Shown piece after piece: positions 1,993-13,779 of a stretch of DNA of 18,463 bases. This DNA comes from a virus (taxonomy: Duplodnaviria; Heunggongvirae; Uroviricota; Caudoviricetes). Position numbers and translations under genes: made by a program. The notes under the pieces are model-generated. The model had not been told where the DNA came from, did not search any database, and worked only from the letters and a program-made list of their open reading frames with translations. The stretch is from the IMG/VR virus record IMGVR_UViG_2703718769_000006. One strand, 5' to 3'. Numbering within the stretch: position 1 is the first letter of the stretch; each line of letters begins with the position of its first letter.

Positions 1993-2673
1993 CTATCGCC
2001 ATTGCTCCCCAAATACAAAACTAATTTCAGCCAGTGCTTCGTCCATTTTTTCGATGAATTCCGGCACCATCTCGTCAAAACCAGCCATGTATTTTTCATC
2101 CCGCTCGACCACGACATAATGCAGGCCTTCACGCTTCATGCGCGGGTCATAGTTGGCGAAGTACCAGGCATCTTTTCGAGTCACCCACATGCTGAATTGC
2201 ACCTGGGCCATGTAAGCTGATTTTATGGCCTCGAAACCACCGAGCCGGAATTTCATGAAATCCCGGGAGGTAAACGGACATTTCAGCTCAAGGCCGTTGC
2301 CGTCACTGCATAATCCATCCGGAGAGCAGGCGGTACGCATACTTTCGTCGCGATAGATGATCGGGGATTCAGTAATATTCACGCCGGAAGTAAACTCAAA
2401 CAGGGCTCTGGCGTCGTTCTCGTACTGTTTTCCCCATGCCAGGGCTTTGGCGTTAACTTCCGGGGCCACACCCGTGCAGACCTCAGCCAGCAGAGTGTGG
2501 AAGTAGGACATTTTCATGTCAGGCCATTTCTTTCCGGAGCGGGGTTTTGCTATCACGTTGTGAACTTCTGAAGCTGTGATGACCCCGAGCCGTAATTTTT
2601 GCCATGCATAATCTCCCTGCTCGACACCTCTCACGTCGATCCCGGTACGTTGTAGGATAATTTCTGGTGTCAT
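1993..2673 (-). CDS. exo: Lambda-type 5'-3' exonuclease (Red alpha)
   Basis: 226-aa product ([21 protein letters not shown]…GEQWR) is near-identical along its length to lambda Exo as I recall it. Start overlaps the bet stop. Confidence 0.95.
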
Positions 2674-3455
2674 GCTGCCACCTTATGCTCTGTGGCTTTC
2701 TGTTTAAGGAATCCAAGAGCCTTCTCTGCTTCGGCTTGGGACAGTTCTGACGACGCTCGAATGTTGCGGCGAAAAATCTGGGAACAGAGCGGCAACAGGT
2801 CGTCATCCCACGTTTTTTCCATGGAAGTAAGAAGGGCGTTAATTTCCGACATGGTTTCTTCGTTAACCGGGGTGATGTCGCGTTCCGGCTGACGTTCTGT
2901 AGTATATGCGGTATTTTCGACAATACGCTCGGCTTCATCCTTGTCATAGATGCCAGCAAATCCGAAGGCCAGGCGAGCACACTGAATCATGGCTTTGTGC
3001 CGTAACATCCGTTTGGGATGCGACTGCCACGGTCCGGTGATTTCTCTGCCTTCGCGGGTTTTGAATGGTGCGCGGCGACATTCATCCATCCACTCGGTAA
3101 CGCAGATCGGGTGATTGCGATCTTTGCGGTAAATCCGGCATGTACAGGACTCATTGTCCTGCTCAAAGTCCATGCCATCAAACTGCTGGTTTTCATTGAT
3201 AATGCGGGACCAGCCATCAACGCCAACCACCGGAACGATGCCGTTCTGCTTGTCAGGGAAGGCGTAAATTTCTTTCGTCCAGGGATTAAGGCCGTACTGG
3301 TTGGCGACGATCAACAATGCGATAAATTGCGCATCGCTGGCATCACCTTTAAATGCCGTCTGGCGAAGAGTGGTGATTAGTTCCTGTGGGTCGACAGAAT
3401 CCATGCCGACACGTTCAGCCAGCTTCCCTGCCAGCGTTGCGAGTGCTGTACTCAT
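2670..3455 (-). CDS. bet: Single-strand annealing recombinase Bet (Red beta)
   Basis: 261-aa product ([66 protein letters not shown]…) matches lambda Bet over its full length from memory. Confidence 0.95.
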
Positions 3456-3460
3456 CCGTT

Positions 3461-3757
3461 TTATACCTCTGAATCAATATTAATTTGGTGACGGGCGATG
3501 GTTTCAGCCATGTAGCGGATGTGTTCTGCCATGCGTTCCTGAAAATCGACATCGTCATCAAATGCACGGGAAATAGCTTTTTTGCTGGCCCCGTGACGTT
3601 GCAGATTATCGATGCATAGCGATTCAAACAGGTGTTGGGGCAGACCTTTTTCCAGGTCGTCTGCCAGCTCAGCTTCAGTTTCTTCACGGGCAATTTGCTG
3701 GTAGTGTCGTGCCCATGACTGCTCTTCAATGCGATCGGGGATAAGCCAGGCATTCAT
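3461..3757 (-). CDS. gam: RecBCD inhibitor Gam (short, 98-aa form)
   Basis: Product (…[48 protein letters not shown]…) matches lambda Gam. SD GGAGG lies 9 nt upstream; the ATG overlaps the TGA of the upstream ORF (ATGA). Confidence 0.9.
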
Positions 3758-5826
3758 GATTTATCACCTCCGAAATTTTCAAGCCTGTTGGCAATCATGA
3801 TGGCGATATCAGGGATTGCTGGCGCTGTGGCTATACATGCGGGGTTGGCGCACAAACCATAGACGGCGGCAATCACGAGCTGTCTTTTCCAGTCGAGAGT
3901 TACTGGCTCAGAATTGGCGTCATCGCCGGACGTATCACTGCCTGGCTCGTTCTGAACAACGGTTTCGCCCTCCTGAGCGGCATCAACAGAGTTTTCCTGA
4001 ATGATCTTCTCCTCAGTTTGTGCTGAGTCTTCTCCATCAGCGGCGTCATTTTCTCCAAAAGTTTCTGTGTAAGTGCTATCGCCCATTACCGCACTACAGT
4101 CAGGGCAGTTACCCCCGCCAGTCTGACCACAGACGCGGCAGTTTTTTTCCAGCTCCGGTTGCGCTACTGGGGCTGGCTGTTGCTCTTCTGGCCCGTTTTG
4201 TTGCGTATCCGGGCTGTTTTGTCCCGCTTCTGGGGCAATTTGTTCCACTTTGGACTGATTCTGGTCCTCAGTGTCGCGAGCCTGGATCCCCTTAATCCAC
4301 TTCGGGTCGGTTGGGGCGCTGATGCCTTCAACGAACTCCCCACGAGAGGCAGCCAGCAATTTGTCTGCATCGACAGGATTTTTGGGCGAAATGTTTTTCC
4401 TGGCTTCATGGAGTTCTGCTCTCAGTTCCTGGTATTTCGTTTCTACAGATGAGACATTTTCCAGTGATTGCGTGTCCGCATTATGTTTAACTGGAATTTC
4501 TTCCACTGACTCAGGCGCTGCCTGTTCATTAGACATTGCGTCCGATGTTTGCTGCTTTTCTTCATCGTCATGTATCTCTTCTGCTGTTCCGCGCTGCGGC
4601 ATTGGGGCTGATGAGCGACCGCAGGCGATTTCCACGATTTCCGGATCCGGGTTAGAGTGATCGGTTTCGGTCAACACTTTGTTGAGATATTCAGTCACGC
4701 GCGCCGGGATAGCCTCAATGCCGATTGGTGCTTCTTTCACTGAAGCCACCACAATGGCGCGGGAATAATCCAGCCCACCGGGCATGGCGATGAATTTGTC
4801 ACGGAAAACAGAAAAGGGCGGCTTATTCTCTGACACGATTTCTTCAACGCGTTTTGCGTGTGCTGGGTGCAGGTTATAAATATCCACATCCATTGAACGG
4901 GCCAGAACGCCAGTGGCAATGTCTCGCGCCAGTGATGCCTGATTGTGGGTAAAGCCTTCGCCACGATCGGTAAGATTTCCGCCGCCAGCGTTAGCACCGG
5001 AAGGCGTACGAGTGATGCCTGTAACATAATTTCCTTTCTGCCATTCTTTTGCCAGCAATCCCTGATCCACATAGTCTGTTTTCATCCAGGTGGAGATGAA
5101 CTTGTCGAATTCAGCCGGGCTGATGCGATGATTTGCAGAGTGGGGGAATGCTTTCCCTACAGATTCAGCTAGGCGACTAAGGTGATGGTTCGTCAGTTTA
5201 TCCAGTTCATGATGCGCGGCGCGCACAGCAGTAAGCAGGCTCTGAAGGTAACTGTCCTCTGTGTCCATCTCCATACGGATCACGTTATTGCGTTGTTCTG
5301 GTGTGGCATGATGCCGGTATTTTCCATCTTCATCTTTGCTGAATAAGAAGAGGTGAAGGAAGCGATGAGTAAGGCTCAGAGTGGCGACGGGAATTTCACA
5401 CTCAGAACAGTCATCGTCGCTGTCCGGGGATTCGCTTTTCTCCACATCATCCGGAATAGTTCCGTCCAGGTTATCGTTGTCATCGCCAGCAGTTGTGGCA
5501 TCTTCACCGTTGATGTTGTCATCGAAGGGGATAGCCATCATGGTGATGCCATCGTTACCGCCTTTTTCATAGCGGTTGCAGAATTCAGTATCAAACACGC
5601 CTTCCGGTGGAAGGTCATTCACGACGGGGAAATTTACGCGAACGGGTTTTTTGAAATCATCCTCGTCGTAGCCTGCATCGTCCATGGCTGCAATGCAGCG
5701 GGAAACTGCGACAGAAAGTTTTCTGGCCTCGGTCCAGAAAAAACCGCCTTTGATGTCAAGGCGTTTTCTGACTTTATCGTTTTTTGCTTCGCAGTGTAGT
5801 GCAAAAGTCTGTTTATCAGCACTCAT
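3754..5826 (-). CDS. Large acidic protein of unknown function (690 aa)
   Basis: Long uninterrupted ORF in the pL direction with a 4-nt ATGA overlap to gam. Contains long D/E/Q-rich low-complexity stretches, a CxxC-x8-CxxC motif ([16 protein letters not shown]) and a non-acidic central segment (…[42 protein letters not shown]…). No family recognised. Confidence 0.75.
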
Positions 5827-10241: not shown

Positions 10242-10949
10242 TTACCAGCTATGTGATGACCAGAACACTCGTCCTATGATTTTTACGTTTTTGTAGAATT
10301 CTTCTCTGTTCATTACTTCATCAGGATACTCTTCGCGGTTTATCGATCTGATAATTACCGATGTTGGTGTGGCTATTAGCGTTTTTACCCTTAACAAATC
10401 AGCTTGGCAAATTGCATATGTTTTACCATCCCTGATGCTCGTATCTTGCGTGTTTACCCCCACCACATCACCATCATGGAGTGTTGGCTCCATACTTTGC
10501 CCAACAACCCTGACCAACTTTGCCGCTTTTTCTGGAACTCCCATTTTTTTCAGGTAATAGCGCCTAAAAACTAGAGAGAATTCTGCGGACTCCTCCAATG
10601 CACAACTTCCTCCGCCAGCTGAAAGTGAAATATTTAGAAGGGGGAGCGCAACAAATTCGTCATTATCATTTTGATGATCATCCCAGGCGATAGCTTTTAA
10701 AGATGATTCCCGAGCATTAGATGGCTCTTCTGCGCTCTGTGGTCTCATTGACCCTATACCAGAGCTTAGCCACTCAGGGCGAACTCTTAACGCGTTGGCT
10801 AATTCGACCATTTTACGTGATCCGGTTGTTTTACCAGATGACATCTTTTGTATGGCTGGTTGTGATACCCCCACCATGTCTGCAAGTTGTGCTTGTGACA
10901 ACCCGGCTGAACTCATGGCGGCATTTAGTCTTTCTGCGAATGTTTTCAT
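10242..10949 (-). CDS. cI: CI-type prophage repressor (HTH plus S24 LexA-like autocleavage domain)
   Basis: 235-aa product with N-terminal HTH (LSQAQLADMVGVSQPAIQKM), an Ala-Gly cleavage region (SAGGG) and Ser/Lys dyad motifs (GQSMEP … KTLI). Divergent from cro with operators between them. Confidence 0.9.
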   Translation of the reverse strand: MKTFAERLNAAMSSAGLSQAQLADMVGVSQPAIQKMSSGKTTGSRKMVELANALRVRPEWLSSGIGSMRPQSAEEPSNARESSLKAIAWDDHQNDNDEFVALPLLNISLSAGGGSCALEESAEFSLVFRRYYLKKMGVPEKAAKLVRVVGQSMEPTLHDGDVVGVNTQDTSIRDGKTYAICQADLLRVKTLIATPTSVIIRSINREEYPDEVMNREEFYKNVKIIGRVFWSSHSW

Positions 10950-10955
10950 ACCTGT

Positions 10956-11034
10956 AATCTATAACCACGGTTATCAAAAGTAAAACAACAATTGTTATTG
11001 CTCTGTTGTATAACTCATGTTATTTTTGGTTATG
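10956..11034. promoter_or_regulatory. OR region: three operator dyads plus candidate pRM and pR
   Basis: Three sites of the form ATAAC-N4-GTTAT at 10961-10974 (ATAACCACGGTTAT), 10985-10998 (ACAACAATTGTTAT) and 11010-11023 (ATAACTCATGTTAT), centres about 24 bp apart. TAGATT on the minus strand (10956-10961) sits about 7 bp before the cI ATG, as for a leaderless pRM transcript. Confidence 0.7.
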
Positions 11035-11059
11035 CTTTATTTGCTGTAGAGGTATGCTC

Positions 11060-11284
11060 ATGAATTTAGTGATTCAGCGAGCCTTGAATATTGTTGGCAG
11101 TCAAAAACGACTTGCAGCTGATTGCGGCGTATCACAGCCCGCTGTTCATAAATGGTTGCGAGGCGGAAAAGTTTCTCCTGAAAAAGTTTTCGCTATCGTT
11201 AATGCCACCAATGGTCAGGTTAAGGCTTACGAAATTCGCCCGGACTTACCGCACCTGTTTCCTCATCCGAACCAGGCTGAATAA
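11060..11284 (+). CDS. cro: Cro-like small HTH regulator (74 aa)
   Basis: ORF 11006..11284; the ATG at 11060 has AGAGG 7 nt upstream. HTH segment QKRLAADCGVSQPAVHKWLRGG. Divergent from cI. Confidence 0.75.
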   Translation: MNLVIQRALNIVGSQKRLAADCGVSQPAVHKWLRGGKVSPEKVFAIVNATNGQVKAYEIRPDLPHLFPHPNQAE

Positions 11285-11291
11285 GTAACAC

Positions 11292-11333
11292 CGCTCTTTA
11301 ACATTGCTGGTCGTTCACCTCTAACAGGGTGAG
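11292..11333 (+). promoter_or_regulatory. nutR (boxA and boxB)
   Basis: CGCTCTTTAA (boxA-like) followed 12 nt later by the hairpin TCACC-TCTAACAG-GGTGA, between cro and cII. The boxB loop is CTAAC-rich like the nutL copy. Confidence 0.7.
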
Positions 11334-11399
11334 CAAACATCAGTGGCAAACCCATTGGGATTGCCGCTTAACCCCATATCAATATAGGAAAATTAACAA

Positions 11400-11696
11400 A
11401 TGTCACAAACAAGTTACAGCAAACTGTCGCAGCGCGATATCGATCGCGCTGAAACGGATTTACTTATCAACCTGTCAGTTCTGACGCAAAGGGGACTGGC
11501 GAAGATGATTGGCTGCCATGAATCGAAGGTCAGTCGTACCGACTGGCGATACATCGCGGCGATTTTATGTGCGTTCCAGATGGCATCTGATATCAGTCCG
11601 ATCAGCCGGGCTTTCCAGCATGCCATTCGCGTTCATGCAAATAAAAAACGTCCGGTTGGGGCCGGACGTTCTGAGCAAATCCTGATGAATATCTGA
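11400..11696 (+). CDS. cII: CII-like transcriptional activator
   Basis: 98-aa product; the C-terminus …NKKRPVGAGRSEQILMNI parallels lambda CII …NKKRPAATERSEQIQMEF. HTH in the middle; position after cro and nutR. Confidence 0.85.
   Translation: MSQTSYSKLSQRDIDRAETDLLINLSVLTQRGLAKMIGCHESKVSRTDWRYIAAILCAFQMASDISPISRAFQHAIRVHANKKRPVGAGRSEQILMNI
11641..11669 (-). terminator. oop-like antisense terminator within the cII 3' end
   Basis: Minus strand reads ACGTCCGG-CCCCAA-CCGGACGT followed by TTTTTTAT. Same position and orientation as the lambda oop terminator overlapping the cII C-terminus. Confidence 0.6.
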
Positions 11697-11760
11697 TATT
11701 CAGGCAGGGCATGGAGCAATACACGGGAATAATTCTGCCACATCTGGAAGAATTTCGCCA

Positions 11761-11916
11761 GCAACAACACCAACCGCAGCAGCCTGAAGCCGATTGGGTT
11801 AACCCGGAGATACCGGGACCGTCTGTGAAGATGTGCAGTCACACCAATGTGCAGTCACACCAACCGCAGCAGCCTGAAGCCGATTGGGTTAACCCGGGAG
11901 ATACCGGGACCGTCTG
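11761..11916. repeat. Two tandem copies of an approximately 60-bp repeat upstream of the O-like gene
   Basis: Copy A 11767-11826 and copy B 11857-11916: ACACCAACCGCAGCAGCCTGAAGCCGATTGGGTTAACCCGG(G)AGATACCGGGACCGTCTG. Each carries the dyads GGGTTAACCC and CCCGG-N5/6-CCGGG. The short tandem GTGCAGTCACACCAA occurs twice between them. Confidence 0.85.
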
Positions 11917-11949
11917 CGGTATGGAGTAAATCTTGTATGCGAGGGGACT

Positions 11950-13032
11950 ATGCGTAATTACGCAACAATTTCACCTCAGTTCTGGTTAGGCGATACAGGG
12001 CGAAAACTAAGGAAGTCTGGTCCGGAATGTATGGTAGTGGCGTTGTATATGATGACCTCGCCTCATTCCAATATGCTGGGCCTTTATTACCTGCCTGTTT
12101 TGTACATTGCTCACGAAACCGGACTTGATCCTGAAGGGGCTTCTAAGGGGCTTCAAATGGCTTGCGAGGCTGGTTTTTGCAGCTATGACCATGATTCTGA
12201 GGTTGTATGGGTGCATGAAATGGCAGCATGGCAGGTTGGTGAATCGCTGAAACCTGGCGATAACCGTTGTGCTGGGGTAAGAAATGAATATTCCGCGTTG
12301 CTGGAAAATCCTTTTTTATCATCATTTTATGATAGATATAAGGATGATTTCCACCTGGATGTCAGACGTGAATCATGTCGGAAAATTGAAGCCCCTTCAG
12401 AGCCCCTTTCAAGCCAAGAACAGGAACAGGAACAGGAACAGGAAAGAGATAAAACCCTTCTGGTCCATGGCGAAAAAATCGCCACGGACCCACTGGTGGA
12501 TTCTTGTCCCGTTCTGACTGAACGTCCAGGACCAGCTGGCATGACACCGGAAGCAGATTCCGGGCGTTGTGTGCAGCAGGTGCTGCTCGTCGAACCGGAG
12601 CAACAACACCAACCGCAGCAGCCTGAAGCCGATTCCGCGATGAGCGGGAAGCCGATTGGGTTAACCCGGGCGATGCCGGGACCGTCTGCGGGACGAGTTG
12701 ATTATCCTGACGTGTTCGAACGGGTCTGGCGTGAATATCCGCATCGGGCAGGGTCAAACCCGAAGAAATCCGCGTTCAATGCCTGGAGGGCCAGATTACG
12801 CGAAGGGGTGTCACCGGATGTCGTGCTGGATGGCGTGAGGCGTTACGCAAGATACCTGGAGGCTACCGGGAAAGCGGGAACTGAATTTGTTCAGCAGGCA
12901 TCGACGTTTTTTGGCCCGAACAGGAATTTCGAAAATCCGTGGTCGCTGCCGAAGGCTGGCGCAGTCAGCCTGCGTTGCGTGAATCACATTTCTGAACCGG
13001 ACACCGAAATTCCGCCGGGTTTCAGGGGGTAA
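11950..13032 (+). CDS. Replication initiator (O-like replisome organiser)
   Basis: 360-aa ORF directly upstream of a DnaC-like loader gene. Its central linker has low-complexity SQEQEQEQEQER and a third copy of the repeat. Function is assigned by position and architecture, not by a recognised motif. Confidence 0.65.
   Translation: MRNYATISPQFWLGDTGRKLRKSGPECMVVALYMMTSPHSNMLGLYYLPVLYIAHETGLDPEGASKGLQMACEAGFCSYDHDSEVVWVHEMAAWQVGESLKPGDNRCAGVRNEYSALLENPFLSSFYDRYKDDFHLDVRRESCRKIEAPSEPLSSQEQEQEQEQERDKTLLVHGEKIATDPLVDSCPVLTERPGPAGMTPEADSGRCVQQVLLVEPEQQHQPQQPEADSAMSGKPIGLTRAMPGPSAGRVDYPDVFERVWREYPHRAGSNPKKSAFNAWRARLREGVSPDVVLDGVRRYARYLEATGKAGTEFVQQASTFFGPNRNFENPWSLPKAGAVSLRCVNHISEPDTEIPPGFRG
12415..12444 (+). 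repeat. (CAGGAA)n hexanucleotide tandem repeat inside the O-like gene
   Basis: caagaa followed by four perfect caggaa units, encoding the EQ-repeat linker. Confidence 0.9.
12606..12691. repeat. Third, interrupted copy of the 60-bp repeat, inside the O-like coding sequence
   Basis: ACACCAACCGCAGCAGCCTGAAGCCGATT-[ccgcgatgagcgggaagccgatt]-GGGTTAACCCGGGCGATGCCGGGACCGTCTGCGG; the same unit as 11767-11826 with an internal duplication of GAAGCCGATT. Confidence 0.85.
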
Positions 13033-13038
13033 TCAGCC

Positions 13039-13779
13039 ATGAAAAACATTTCGACAGGAGGGATTCTTGAACGGGTGCGCCGTCTGGCACCACCGCACGT
13101 GGCAGCACCGTTCCGGACGACCGACGAATGGCGGGAATGGCAACTGGCTGAGGGCCGGAAGCGCAGCGAGGAAGTTAACCGCCAGAATCACCAGACGCGG
13201 GTTGAAAAAATCCTGAATCGTTCGGGCATCCAGCCGCTTCACAGGAAGTGCTCATTCGGGAACTACCGGGTGCAGAACGACGGTCAGCGCCATGCTCTGA
13301 GTCTGGCAAAATCCATCGCGGCAGAACTGCATACCGGCTGCACGAATTTCGTGTTCAGCGGTAAACCTGGCACCGGGAAAAATCACCTTGCAGCAGCGAT
13401 TGGCAACTGGCTGATGGCGAAGGGGAGAAGCGTGATTATCGTCACCGTGTCCGATGTCATGAGTGTGTTGCATGACGGCTACGACAACGGCAAGTCTGGT
13501 GAGAAATTTTTACAGGAACTTTGCGGGGTAGACCTTCTGGTCCTTGATGAAATTGGCATGCAGCGGGATACGCGCAACGAGCAGGTCATACTGAACCAGA
13601 TCGTCGACCGCAGAACGGCATCACTGCGCAGTGTCGGGATGCTGACGAACCTGAATCACGCAGCTATGAGCACACTCCTCGGCGAGCGGGTGATGGACCG
13701 TATGACCATGAACGGTGGTCGTTGGGTGAATTTTAACTGGGAGAGCTGGCGATCAAACGTTGGGCGTCAGGGTATGTGA
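13039..13779 (+). CDS. DnaC/IstB-like AAA+ helicase loader
   Basis: 246-aa product with Walker A (FSGKPGTGKNHLAAA) and Walker B (LLVLDEIG) motifs; follows the O-like gene by 7 nt. Confidence 0.85.
   Translation: MKNISTGGILERVRRLAPPHVAAPFRTTDEWREWQLAEGRKRSEEVNRQNHQTRVEKILNRSGIQPLHRKCSFGNYRVQNDGQRHALSLAKSIAAELHTGCTNFVFSGKPGTGKNHLAAAIGNWLMAKGRSVIIVTVSDVMSVLHDGYDNGKSGEKFLQELCGVDLLVLDEIGMQRDTRNEQVILNQIVDRRTASLRSVGMLTNLNHAAMSTLLGERVMDRMTMNGGRWVNFNWESWRSNVGRQGM

Follow-up and report, generated by a model that had tools for sequence, protein, structure and literature searches.

A probable unstable tandem duplication of initiator linker DNA between cII and the initiator gene of an Eru4-type lambdoid prophage

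The window analysed here is the whole stretch of 18,463 nucleotides of the IMG/VR virus record IMGVR_UViG_2703718769_000006 (Caudoviricetes), a lambdoid prophage with an early-right gene organisation and an "Eru4"-type replication region. A unit of about 60 bp is found twice in the spacer between cII and the gene of the replication initiator, and once more within the initiator gene. Our comparison makes it probable that the upstream units are a lineage-specific and recombinationally unstable tandem duplication of the linker-coding DNA of the initiator, resembling a variable number tandem repeat (VNTR), that they are not the binding sites of the initiator and that the open reading frame (ORF) running through them is not a gene.

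The repeated unit in the window

An earlier note on this DNA had described the 60-bp repeat, with two copies upstream of the gene and one inside it, and had suggested that an internal segment of the gene was duplicated into the cII-initiator spacer. The copies were confirmed by the matches given below, and the proposed duplication is supported by the similarity of the upstream units to the linker segment at the DNA level. The gene and the copies are located as follows.

11950-13032, plus strand: initiator gene, 360 amino acids; PHROG 1701 'DnaD-like helicase loader', NCBI 'DNA-binding protein'
11760-11828, plus strand: upstream unit A, a copy of the linker DNA without a 23-nt piece and with a 1-nt deletion in the second dyad (CCCGG-N5-CCGGG)
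11831-11862, plus strand: the 16-nt sub-repeat ATGTGCAGTCACACCA, present twice in tandem where the two units join, part of the 90-bp period
11850-11919, plus strand: upstream unit B, nearest to the initiator gene, with 95% identity to the internal copy over 44 nt
12599-12691, plus strand: internal full-length copy, encoding residues 217-247 of the initiator (EQQHQPQQPEADSAMSGKPIGLTRAMPGPSAG) and holding the 23 nt absent upstream

The two upstream units are arranged head-to-tail with a period of 90 bp. In unit A, positions 11760-11795 are identical to 12599-12634 at 36 of 36 positions; we calculated that about 1e-13 exact repeats of this length would be expected by chance in 18.5 kb. The same stretch of the internal copy is matched at 89% by 11850-11885 of unit B. 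Further downstream, 11871-11919 shows 92% identity to 12643-12691, and 11780-11828 is the matching stretch of unit A with a gap of 1 nt. The internal copy contains 23 additional bases at 12635-12657 (equivalently 12625-12647), which are flanked by two direct repeats of 10 bp, GAAGCCGATT.

The nested dyads that had been reported in the units were also found. Each unit contains the dyad GGGTTAACCC once, and these three are its only occurrences in the window, against 0.37 expected. CCCGG-N6-CCGGG was located at 11893-11908 and at 12665-12680; in unit A (11803-11817) the spacing is N5.

Variation, distribution and the reading frame in the spacer

The number of upstream units was counted in a census of loci. 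One unit was found in 5 loci (L006, L019, L027, L040 and L043, which include E. coli G1/2 as L006 and several IMG/VR contigs), two units in 32 and three units in 2 (L007 and L009). Strain TOE17 has three upstream units, and so has strain 23CRST047 (L009), where the units are 113 bp long, keep the 23 nt and lie in a spacer that is about 80% identical to that of the window. The copy number varied among prophages that are otherwise 95-100% identical in the flanks, as is typical of a VNTR-like array. The one-unit form consists of the left end of unit A and the right end of unit B, as would be expected from an unequal crossing-over in a two-unit array. The 16-nt sub-repeat was present in 1, 2 or 5 copies among strains, as seen in the protein-database variants of the spacer ORF (e.g. 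P0122 and P0124), which also include forms with and without the 23 nt.

Because the upstream units of L009 hold the 23 nt, the form containing them appears to be the ancestral one, and the upstream units of the window would therefore be deleted versions. The internal copy had been called interrupted in the earlier note; the comparison with L009 argues that it is the upstream units of the window that were shortened. The same deletion of 23/24 nt, between GAAGCCGAT repeats, was observed as an independent event inside the initiator gene of L010, which belongs to another phage type.

The dyads were not invariant. Four sequenced free phages have the two-unit array as in the window with a single substitution, and in 75/02 Stx the substitution breaks the second dyad. 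Rare unit variants with altered dyads contain CCCAGG, ATAGCGGG or GGGTTATCCC.

A larger rearrangement was found in E. coli SW071619 (L008, locus 1801-2274). Here an upstream unit is joined to the internal copy, the N-terminal half of the initiator is gone together with both candidate iteron clusters described below, and the gene is annotated as a pseudogene. This deletion shows that the dispersed repeats serve as a substrate for recombination.

We considered whether the upstream and internal copies evolve in concert. In L009, GATGCC is present in all four copies, and the proximal upstream unit and the internal copy do not differ over the second dyad, which fits. Five loci have GAAGCC upstream but GATGCC inside the gene, which speaks against a continuous homogenisation. 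The exchange between the copies might be frequent, as L009 suggests; our claim is restricted to an occasional exchange, to which the L009 pattern points.

For the wider distribution, 83 loci that code for the N-domain type of the window were retrieved. In the 52 loci with a 71-80% identical N-domain, no similarity of the upstream DNA to the gene was observed, and their upstream regions are unrelated to that of the window. Likewise, no such similarity was found in loci that have the same linker joined to other N-domains. The array and its cII allele were detected in 82 of 5426 E. coli genomes, never one without the other, and the homology of other cII alleles to the window ends exactly at the cII stop codon. 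An association of the array with other cII alleles or other replication modules was also examined; as the homology ends at the cII stop, a transfer with cII and a transfer with the initiator are not distinguishable. Because the upstream copies are absent in the 52 loci and the cII allele that bears the array is restricted to the 82 genomes, the copies appear to be a recent trait of one lineage and not of the replication module.

We propose that about 100 bp of linker DNA (roughly 12599-12697) would have been copied once into the cII-initiator spacer. A 30-nt junction filler accompanies the first upstream copy. Slippage, unequal crossing-over or single-strand annealing would then have enlarged and shortened the array and made its units partly uniform, probably with the assistance of the RecT/YqaJ pair of the prophage itself. 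Rad52-like phage recombinases can exchange sequences whose homology is short and diverged (PMC3945230). The direct repeats bracket the N-domain and the probable origin, and a recombination between them can delete this cassette and cripple the prophage. The main demonstrable effect of the array is structural instability, and it also changes the length of the spacer between cII and the initiator.

The first copy could also have arisen as a remnant of an older initiator gene that lost its N-terminal part after a module exchange at the linker, leaving a leader and a linker fragment. Recombination at the linker is common, since linker and C-domain occur on at least three unrelated N-domains, and the leader (11697-11759) is unique to the lineage. 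Against a remnant, the homology of the units stops at about GGGAYGA with no C-domain sequence beyond, and no longer protein with the leader peptide was found in a collection of 5.8 billion proteins, where the matches were only short and variable E. coli ORFs. The same search bears on the possibility, raised in the earlier note against its own reading, that the upstream copies belong to a longer intact gene in relatives; it was looked for and did not turn up. We regard a remnant as very unlikely. Such an origin would apply to the first copy alone and does not conflict with a VNTR-like duplication.

The ORF in the spacer and an antisense small RNA (sRNA) next to it have the following positions.

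11711-11929, plus strand: ORF72, 72 codons, repeat-derived; annotated as hypothetical protein, PHROG 2751
11641-11713, minus strand: oop-like antisense sRNA, with sub-threshold Rfam matches to Hrs13 (E = 2e-4) and AgvB; overlaps the 3' end of cII
11645-11672, minus strand: clear intrinsic terminator of the oop-like sRNA

ORF72 might code for a real small protein in which the linker peptide is repeated, and which could, for instance, act as a decoy for a factor that interacts with the linker of the initiator. It starts with ATG, is annotated as a hypothetical protein in related phage records and in RefSeq, and forms the family PHROG 2751. It also stays open in the forms with 1, 2 and 3 copies because 90 bp is a multiple of three. 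However, neither its frame nor its C-terminus is conserved: in the form with 113-bp units (L009) the frame closes after 41 codons and no coding sequence is annotated, and variants of 46, 51, 58, 62, 76 and 88 residues differ at their ends. Among the 5.8 billion proteins, the homologues were ten short E. coli ORFs of 42-102 residues with several C-termini and frames, and none was found outside this lineage. The earlier note had stated that the upstream copies translate to the linker peptide of the initiator. This holds for (Q)HQPQQPEAD; only the first 11 residues of each unit are in the frame of the initiator, and downstream of the peptide the units are read in another frame. Moreover, the first codons of ORF72 overlap the start of the sub-threshold oop-like sRNA match, and the promoter of this sRNA should lie under the 5' part of the ORF. 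Since length, frame and C-terminus shift with the repeat variants, ORF72 is probably not a gene, and we consider a functional small protein highly improbable. The array, in turn, has no conserved frame and no counterpart outside the lineage, as a VNTR-like element would.

Another function could reside in the RNA. The array might be a cis-regulatory spacer in the pR transcript that tunes the expression of the initiator or the oop-like antisense promoter by hairpins or by spacer length, with the copy number as a rheostat. It lies in the cII-initiator spacer, with its end 30 nt ahead of the ATG; each unit could form a hairpin of 5 G+C pairs (CCCGG-N6-CCGGG), and the copy number is polymorphic. 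The folding energy, however, was no better than that of shuffled sequences for 11697-11960 (z = -0.42), and neither the array nor its single units folded unusually, as RNA or as DNA, when compared with shuffles (z = -0.4 to -1.3). A scan for promoters and terminators found no site in the array, and an Rfam scan of 10900-13100 gave no match to it. In addition, hairpin-breaking variants exist and relatives do without the array. A regulatory spacer is therefore unlikely.

Candidate initiator-binding sites and the probable origin

The initiator gave no Pfam match at E <= 0.01 and thus none to Phage_rep_O. The gene had been named "O-like" in the earlier note; Pfam provides no support for a homology to lambda O. 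The C-terminal part is labelled phrog_3729 'replication initiation protein' in PHROG. An AlphaFold model built with 26 homologues has a folded N-domain (residues 1-149), a stretch with a predicted local distance difference test (pLDDT) score below 50 (residues 150-249) and a folded C-domain (residues 250-335). The middle stretch is predicted to be a disordered linker, and the internal copy (residues 217-247) falls within it. In the alignment, this stretch varies in length; it is missing in homologues from Klebsiella, Citrobacter and Raoultella and is deleted or replaced in others. A Foldseek search of the model against the PDB yielded no significant match (best E-value 0.05), and weak matches to winged-helix regulators were only suggestive. 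Several IMG/VR contigs (L031, L034 and L043) have truncated initiator ORFs of 188-192 residues.

The module of linker and C-domain has about 82% DNA identity to initiators with unrelated N-domains. These are found in phage Tritos and others ('phage replisome organizer') and in a P0119 type that adjoins YdaS/YdaT; linker and C-domain are joined to at least three unrelated N-domains. The Tritos type has the internal copy without a conserved GGGTTAACCC dyad. When the linker of the window (12635-12700) was compared with that of Tritos (L005, 2585-2650), a compensated frameshift was observed, with one base lost and one gained about 45 nt later, which converts EADRVVPENTGQPVG to KPIGLTRAMPGPSAG. The linker peptide is clearly under little constraint, and GAAGCCGATT would therefore be read in two frames without the need for a function at the DNA level. 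The frameshifted version (KPIGLTRAMPGPSAG) was also observed in the P0119-type initiator, which has a different N-domain. That this type carries the same frameshifted linker implies that linker/C-terminal modules have been swapped between initiator types.

Short repeats were found elsewhere in the initiator gene. The motif AAGGGGCTT was first picked up by a repeat search in relatives and by an inverted repeat (I1) in the window, and it forms two clusters.

12134-12153, plus strand: candidate iteron cluster 1, a pair of AAGGGGCTT repeats with an 11-bp period, located at +185 and +196 of the gene
12389-12408, minus strand: candidate iteron cluster 2, a pair of AAGGGGCT(T/C) repeats with an 11-bp period, located at +440 and +451 of the gene

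Both clusters were present in every distinct gene of the window's N-domain type that was examined, about 70 in number, and also in L097 and L098, which are about 51% identical. The loci compared, across this and the other initiator types, included L045, L011, L097, L098, L005, L010 and L094. Cluster 2 is direct in most clades and inverted in the clade of the window and in L097/L098, with two or three units (+440/+451(/+462)). Its translations are EGASKGL, RGFEGAFKGL and ERGFKGASEGL, and EAPSEPL in the inverted orientation. Because the repeats are conserved irrespective of reading frame and strand, a constraint at the DNA level appears to be the only explanation for the conservation of cluster 2. 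In E. coli G1/2 (L006, locus 1664-2757) cluster 2 has three units instead of two, and the additional one, an 11-bp AAGCCCCTC/T unit, shifts the frame of the initiator gene.

The other initiator types have different motifs in the same layout of two clusters. In the Tritos-type gene, which is devoid of AAGGGGCTT, the repeats read GTCACG, their period is 10 bp and the clusters are separated by 260 bp. In the P0119-type gene AAGCCTT/AAGGCTT recurs every 12 bp, and about 260 bp separate the clusters. Each of the three motifs is exclusive to its own N-domain type. The AAGGGGCTT repeats are thus short, clustered, linked to the N-domain, independent of frame and strand and replaced in the other N-domain types, as would be expected of iterons.

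In all three initiator types an A-rich, T-poor run of low complexity follows directly after cluster 2. In the window this is a (GAACAG)n run at about 12414-12456, which encodes (QE)n, with an AT skew of +0.5 to +0.6 at 12380-12469. By analogy to lambda, the run is a possible unwinding element. An AT-rich stretch between the clusters (G+C 0.30 at 12290-12349) was also considered for this role; it is weaker in relatives, and the peptide that it codes for is itself conserved. The (GAACAG)n run is the more conserved of the two. Among 99% identical phages the (GAACAG)n run differs by one or two units (alignment A2, columns 36-65). Taken together, the origin of the Eru4-type module is probably formed by the two AAGGGGCTT clusters about 250 bp apart in the initiator gene, the second of them followed by the A-rich run. 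The comparison suggests a general rule, with two N-domain-specific clusters of 10-12-bp repeats about 250 bp apart in at least three initiator types that have the linker/C-terminal module in common. The literature was searched for the motif, oriJ/Rac and POCJ13, and no description of AAGGGGCTT repeats was found.

The earlier note had suggested that the 60-bp units themselves are iteron-like, plausible initiator-binding sites that form an extra or relocated origin or an array titrating the initiator; a handcuffing array that controls replication would fall under the same reading. This is suggested by the three copies with their nested dyads and by the one copy in the linker of the initiator, which matches the place of ori-lambda in O (PMC7466680). 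That no form with zero upstream copies was found also speaks for it. The motif GAAGCCGATT also resembles the inverted AAGGGGCTT motif (GAAGCCCCTT) at 8 of 10 positions. Known iterons, however, are repeats of about 11-22 bp in several close copies, and the units are far longer (60-113 bp), with 1-3 copies upstream at a period of 90 or 113 bp and one copy about 750 bp away. Sites of this kind should also be conserved and co-vary with the cognate DNA-binding domain. Outside one narrow lineage no relative has the upstream copies, the 52 loci included, and the internal copy is common to unrelated N-domains, of which the Tritos type has no conserved GGGTTAACCC dyad. The copy number is variable and the dyads are mutable. 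The array is also G+C-rich (0.55-0.58 over 11750-11930, and 0.62-0.65 over 12560-12680 around the internal copy), and a G+C profile revealed no AT-rich tract next to the units that could act as a DNA unwinding element. Finally, a motif that is independent of frame and strand and co-varies with the N-domain was found elsewhere in the gene. We therefore consider it quite unlikely that the units are iterons.

Several points weigh against our own reading of the array as a VNTR-like duplication. A member of the lineage with zero upstream copies was not found among the loci surveyed, so that at least one upstream copy may be indispensable or of some advantage. Two copies are by far the commonest state and are also present in all four sequenced free phages, which could result from shared ancestry or from weak selection. 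Within the lineage the units show good conservation; the flanks are equally conserved (95-99%), and the conservation of the units is hence uninformative. The 8/10 match of GAAGCCGATT to the inverted iteron is, by our own estimate, within chance for a 1-kb gene, and a weak binding of the initiator at GAAGCCGATT may nevertheless occur. We infer the in-gene iterons themselves from comparative sequence data.

A function of the repeats as such would also be conceivable. The upstream array and the internal copy might be direct-repeat 'handles' around the cassette of N-domain and origin. They would promote module exchange or excision between phages that share the linker/C-terminal module, or would bind a factor via the GGGTTAACCC and CCCGG-N6-CCGGG dyads, thereby coupling the copy number of the array to replication control and lysogen stability in Eru4-type Shiga toxin (Stx) phages. 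We give such handles a very small chance.

The replication region and its likeness to known systems

The genes of the region and the recombination genes of the prophage are listed here.

10242-10949, minus strand: cI-like repressor
11006-11284: cro-like gene
11400-11696, plus strand: cII, Pfam Phage_CII; this allele is invariably accompanied by the array
13039-13779, plus strand: DnaC-like helicase loader, the partner of the initiator (IstB_IS21 / PRK12377)
1993-3455 and 3754-5826, both minus strand: stretches with the recombination genes (YqaJ-type exonuclease, RecT annealing protein and a 690-residue protein)

A gene for a DUF1627 protein follows that of the DnaC-like loader. The 690-residue protein has an N-terminal match to Exonuc_VIII (RecE-like).

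Eru4 is a class of Stx-phage replication regions (Llarena/Lindback) with Shigella phage 75/02 Stx as its representative (PMC8951638). The gene order cI-cro-cII-ORF-initiator-DnaC-like-DUF1627 is common to the window and 75/02 Stx, which places the window in this class. The Shigella phages 75/02 Stx and POCJ13 and the Escherichia phages phiSTEC1589-Stx1c and PhiR5_2 match the region 11650-13050 at 99.0-99.6% identity, with 99.0% over 100% of the length for NC_029120 (75/02 Stx). In a text search of PMC8951638, the words 'iteron' and 'repeat' did not occur and the replication origin was not discussed, the genes being only classified. A text search of the Eru classification papers PMC8044961 and PMC8951638 likewise found no origin or iterons given for the Stx-phage replication modules other than O/P.

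The 253-bp spacer (11697-11949) recurs at 100% identity in the prophages of numerous E. coli genomes, which include those of O104:H4 strains of the outbreak lineage. The Stx2a phage of the O104:H4 outbreak strain was reported to be of the Eru1 type and to be without cII (PMC8044961). Because of this report, the match in O104:H4 probably belongs to a different, non-Stx2a prophage or to one of the related Stx1 phages.

The array would be a hypervariable spacer that inflates the annotation with a spurious hypothetical protein and a PHROG family. It could serve as a marker for strain typing, and it can inactivate a replication gene by deletion. It should not be mistaken for the origin of the widespread Eru4-type module of Stx1 and other lambdoid prophages, for which the comparison offers the two AAGGGGCTT clusters inside the initiator gene as a concrete candidate.

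One of the closest known systems is the Eru4 region itself, as the segment from cII over the array and the initiator to the DnaC-like gene is 99% identical to those of 75/02 Stx and POCJ13. Another is ori-lambda. In lambda and in the Stx phages 933W and P27, gene O has in its middle part the iterons, to which the N-domain binds, followed by an AT-rich tract with an A/T skew (PMC7466680). The AAGGGGCTT clusters and the (GAACAG)n run of the window seem to follow the same logic, with an origin in the initiator gene at the junction of N-domain and linker; the internal 60-bp copy is also within the linker. Unlike in lambda, the initiator has no Phage_rep_O match and its partner is DnaC-like, not lambda P. 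The candidate iterons have an 11-bp period in two clusters about 250 bp apart, whereas lambda has one block of 4-6 iterons of about 19 bp. The 60-bp unit is three times as long as a lambda iteron, is independent of the N-domain and is duplicated outside the gene in one lineage only.

Replisome-organizer initiators with origin repeats in their own gene, such as G38P/oriL of Bacillus phage SPP1, offer a further parallel; modules of this kind have reportedly been reviewed by Weigel and Seitz in 2006. They also have two domains, a helicase-loader partner and short direct repeats in the gene, and the PHROG name 'DnaD-like helicase loader' points in the same direction. The initiator of the window differs in having no match to Pfam Phage_rep_org_N, and the likeness is one of architecture only.

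The array itself resembles the VNTRs and segmental duplications of phages and bacteria in its head-to-tail arrangement, polymorphic copy number, nested 16-nt sub-repeats and the indel between 10-bp direct repeats, in the deletions between dispersed copies, and in having no conserved ORF and nothing comparable outside the lineage. It differs from them in its source, which is a segment of the adjacent essential replication gene, so that the repeats flank the N-domain and the probable origin.

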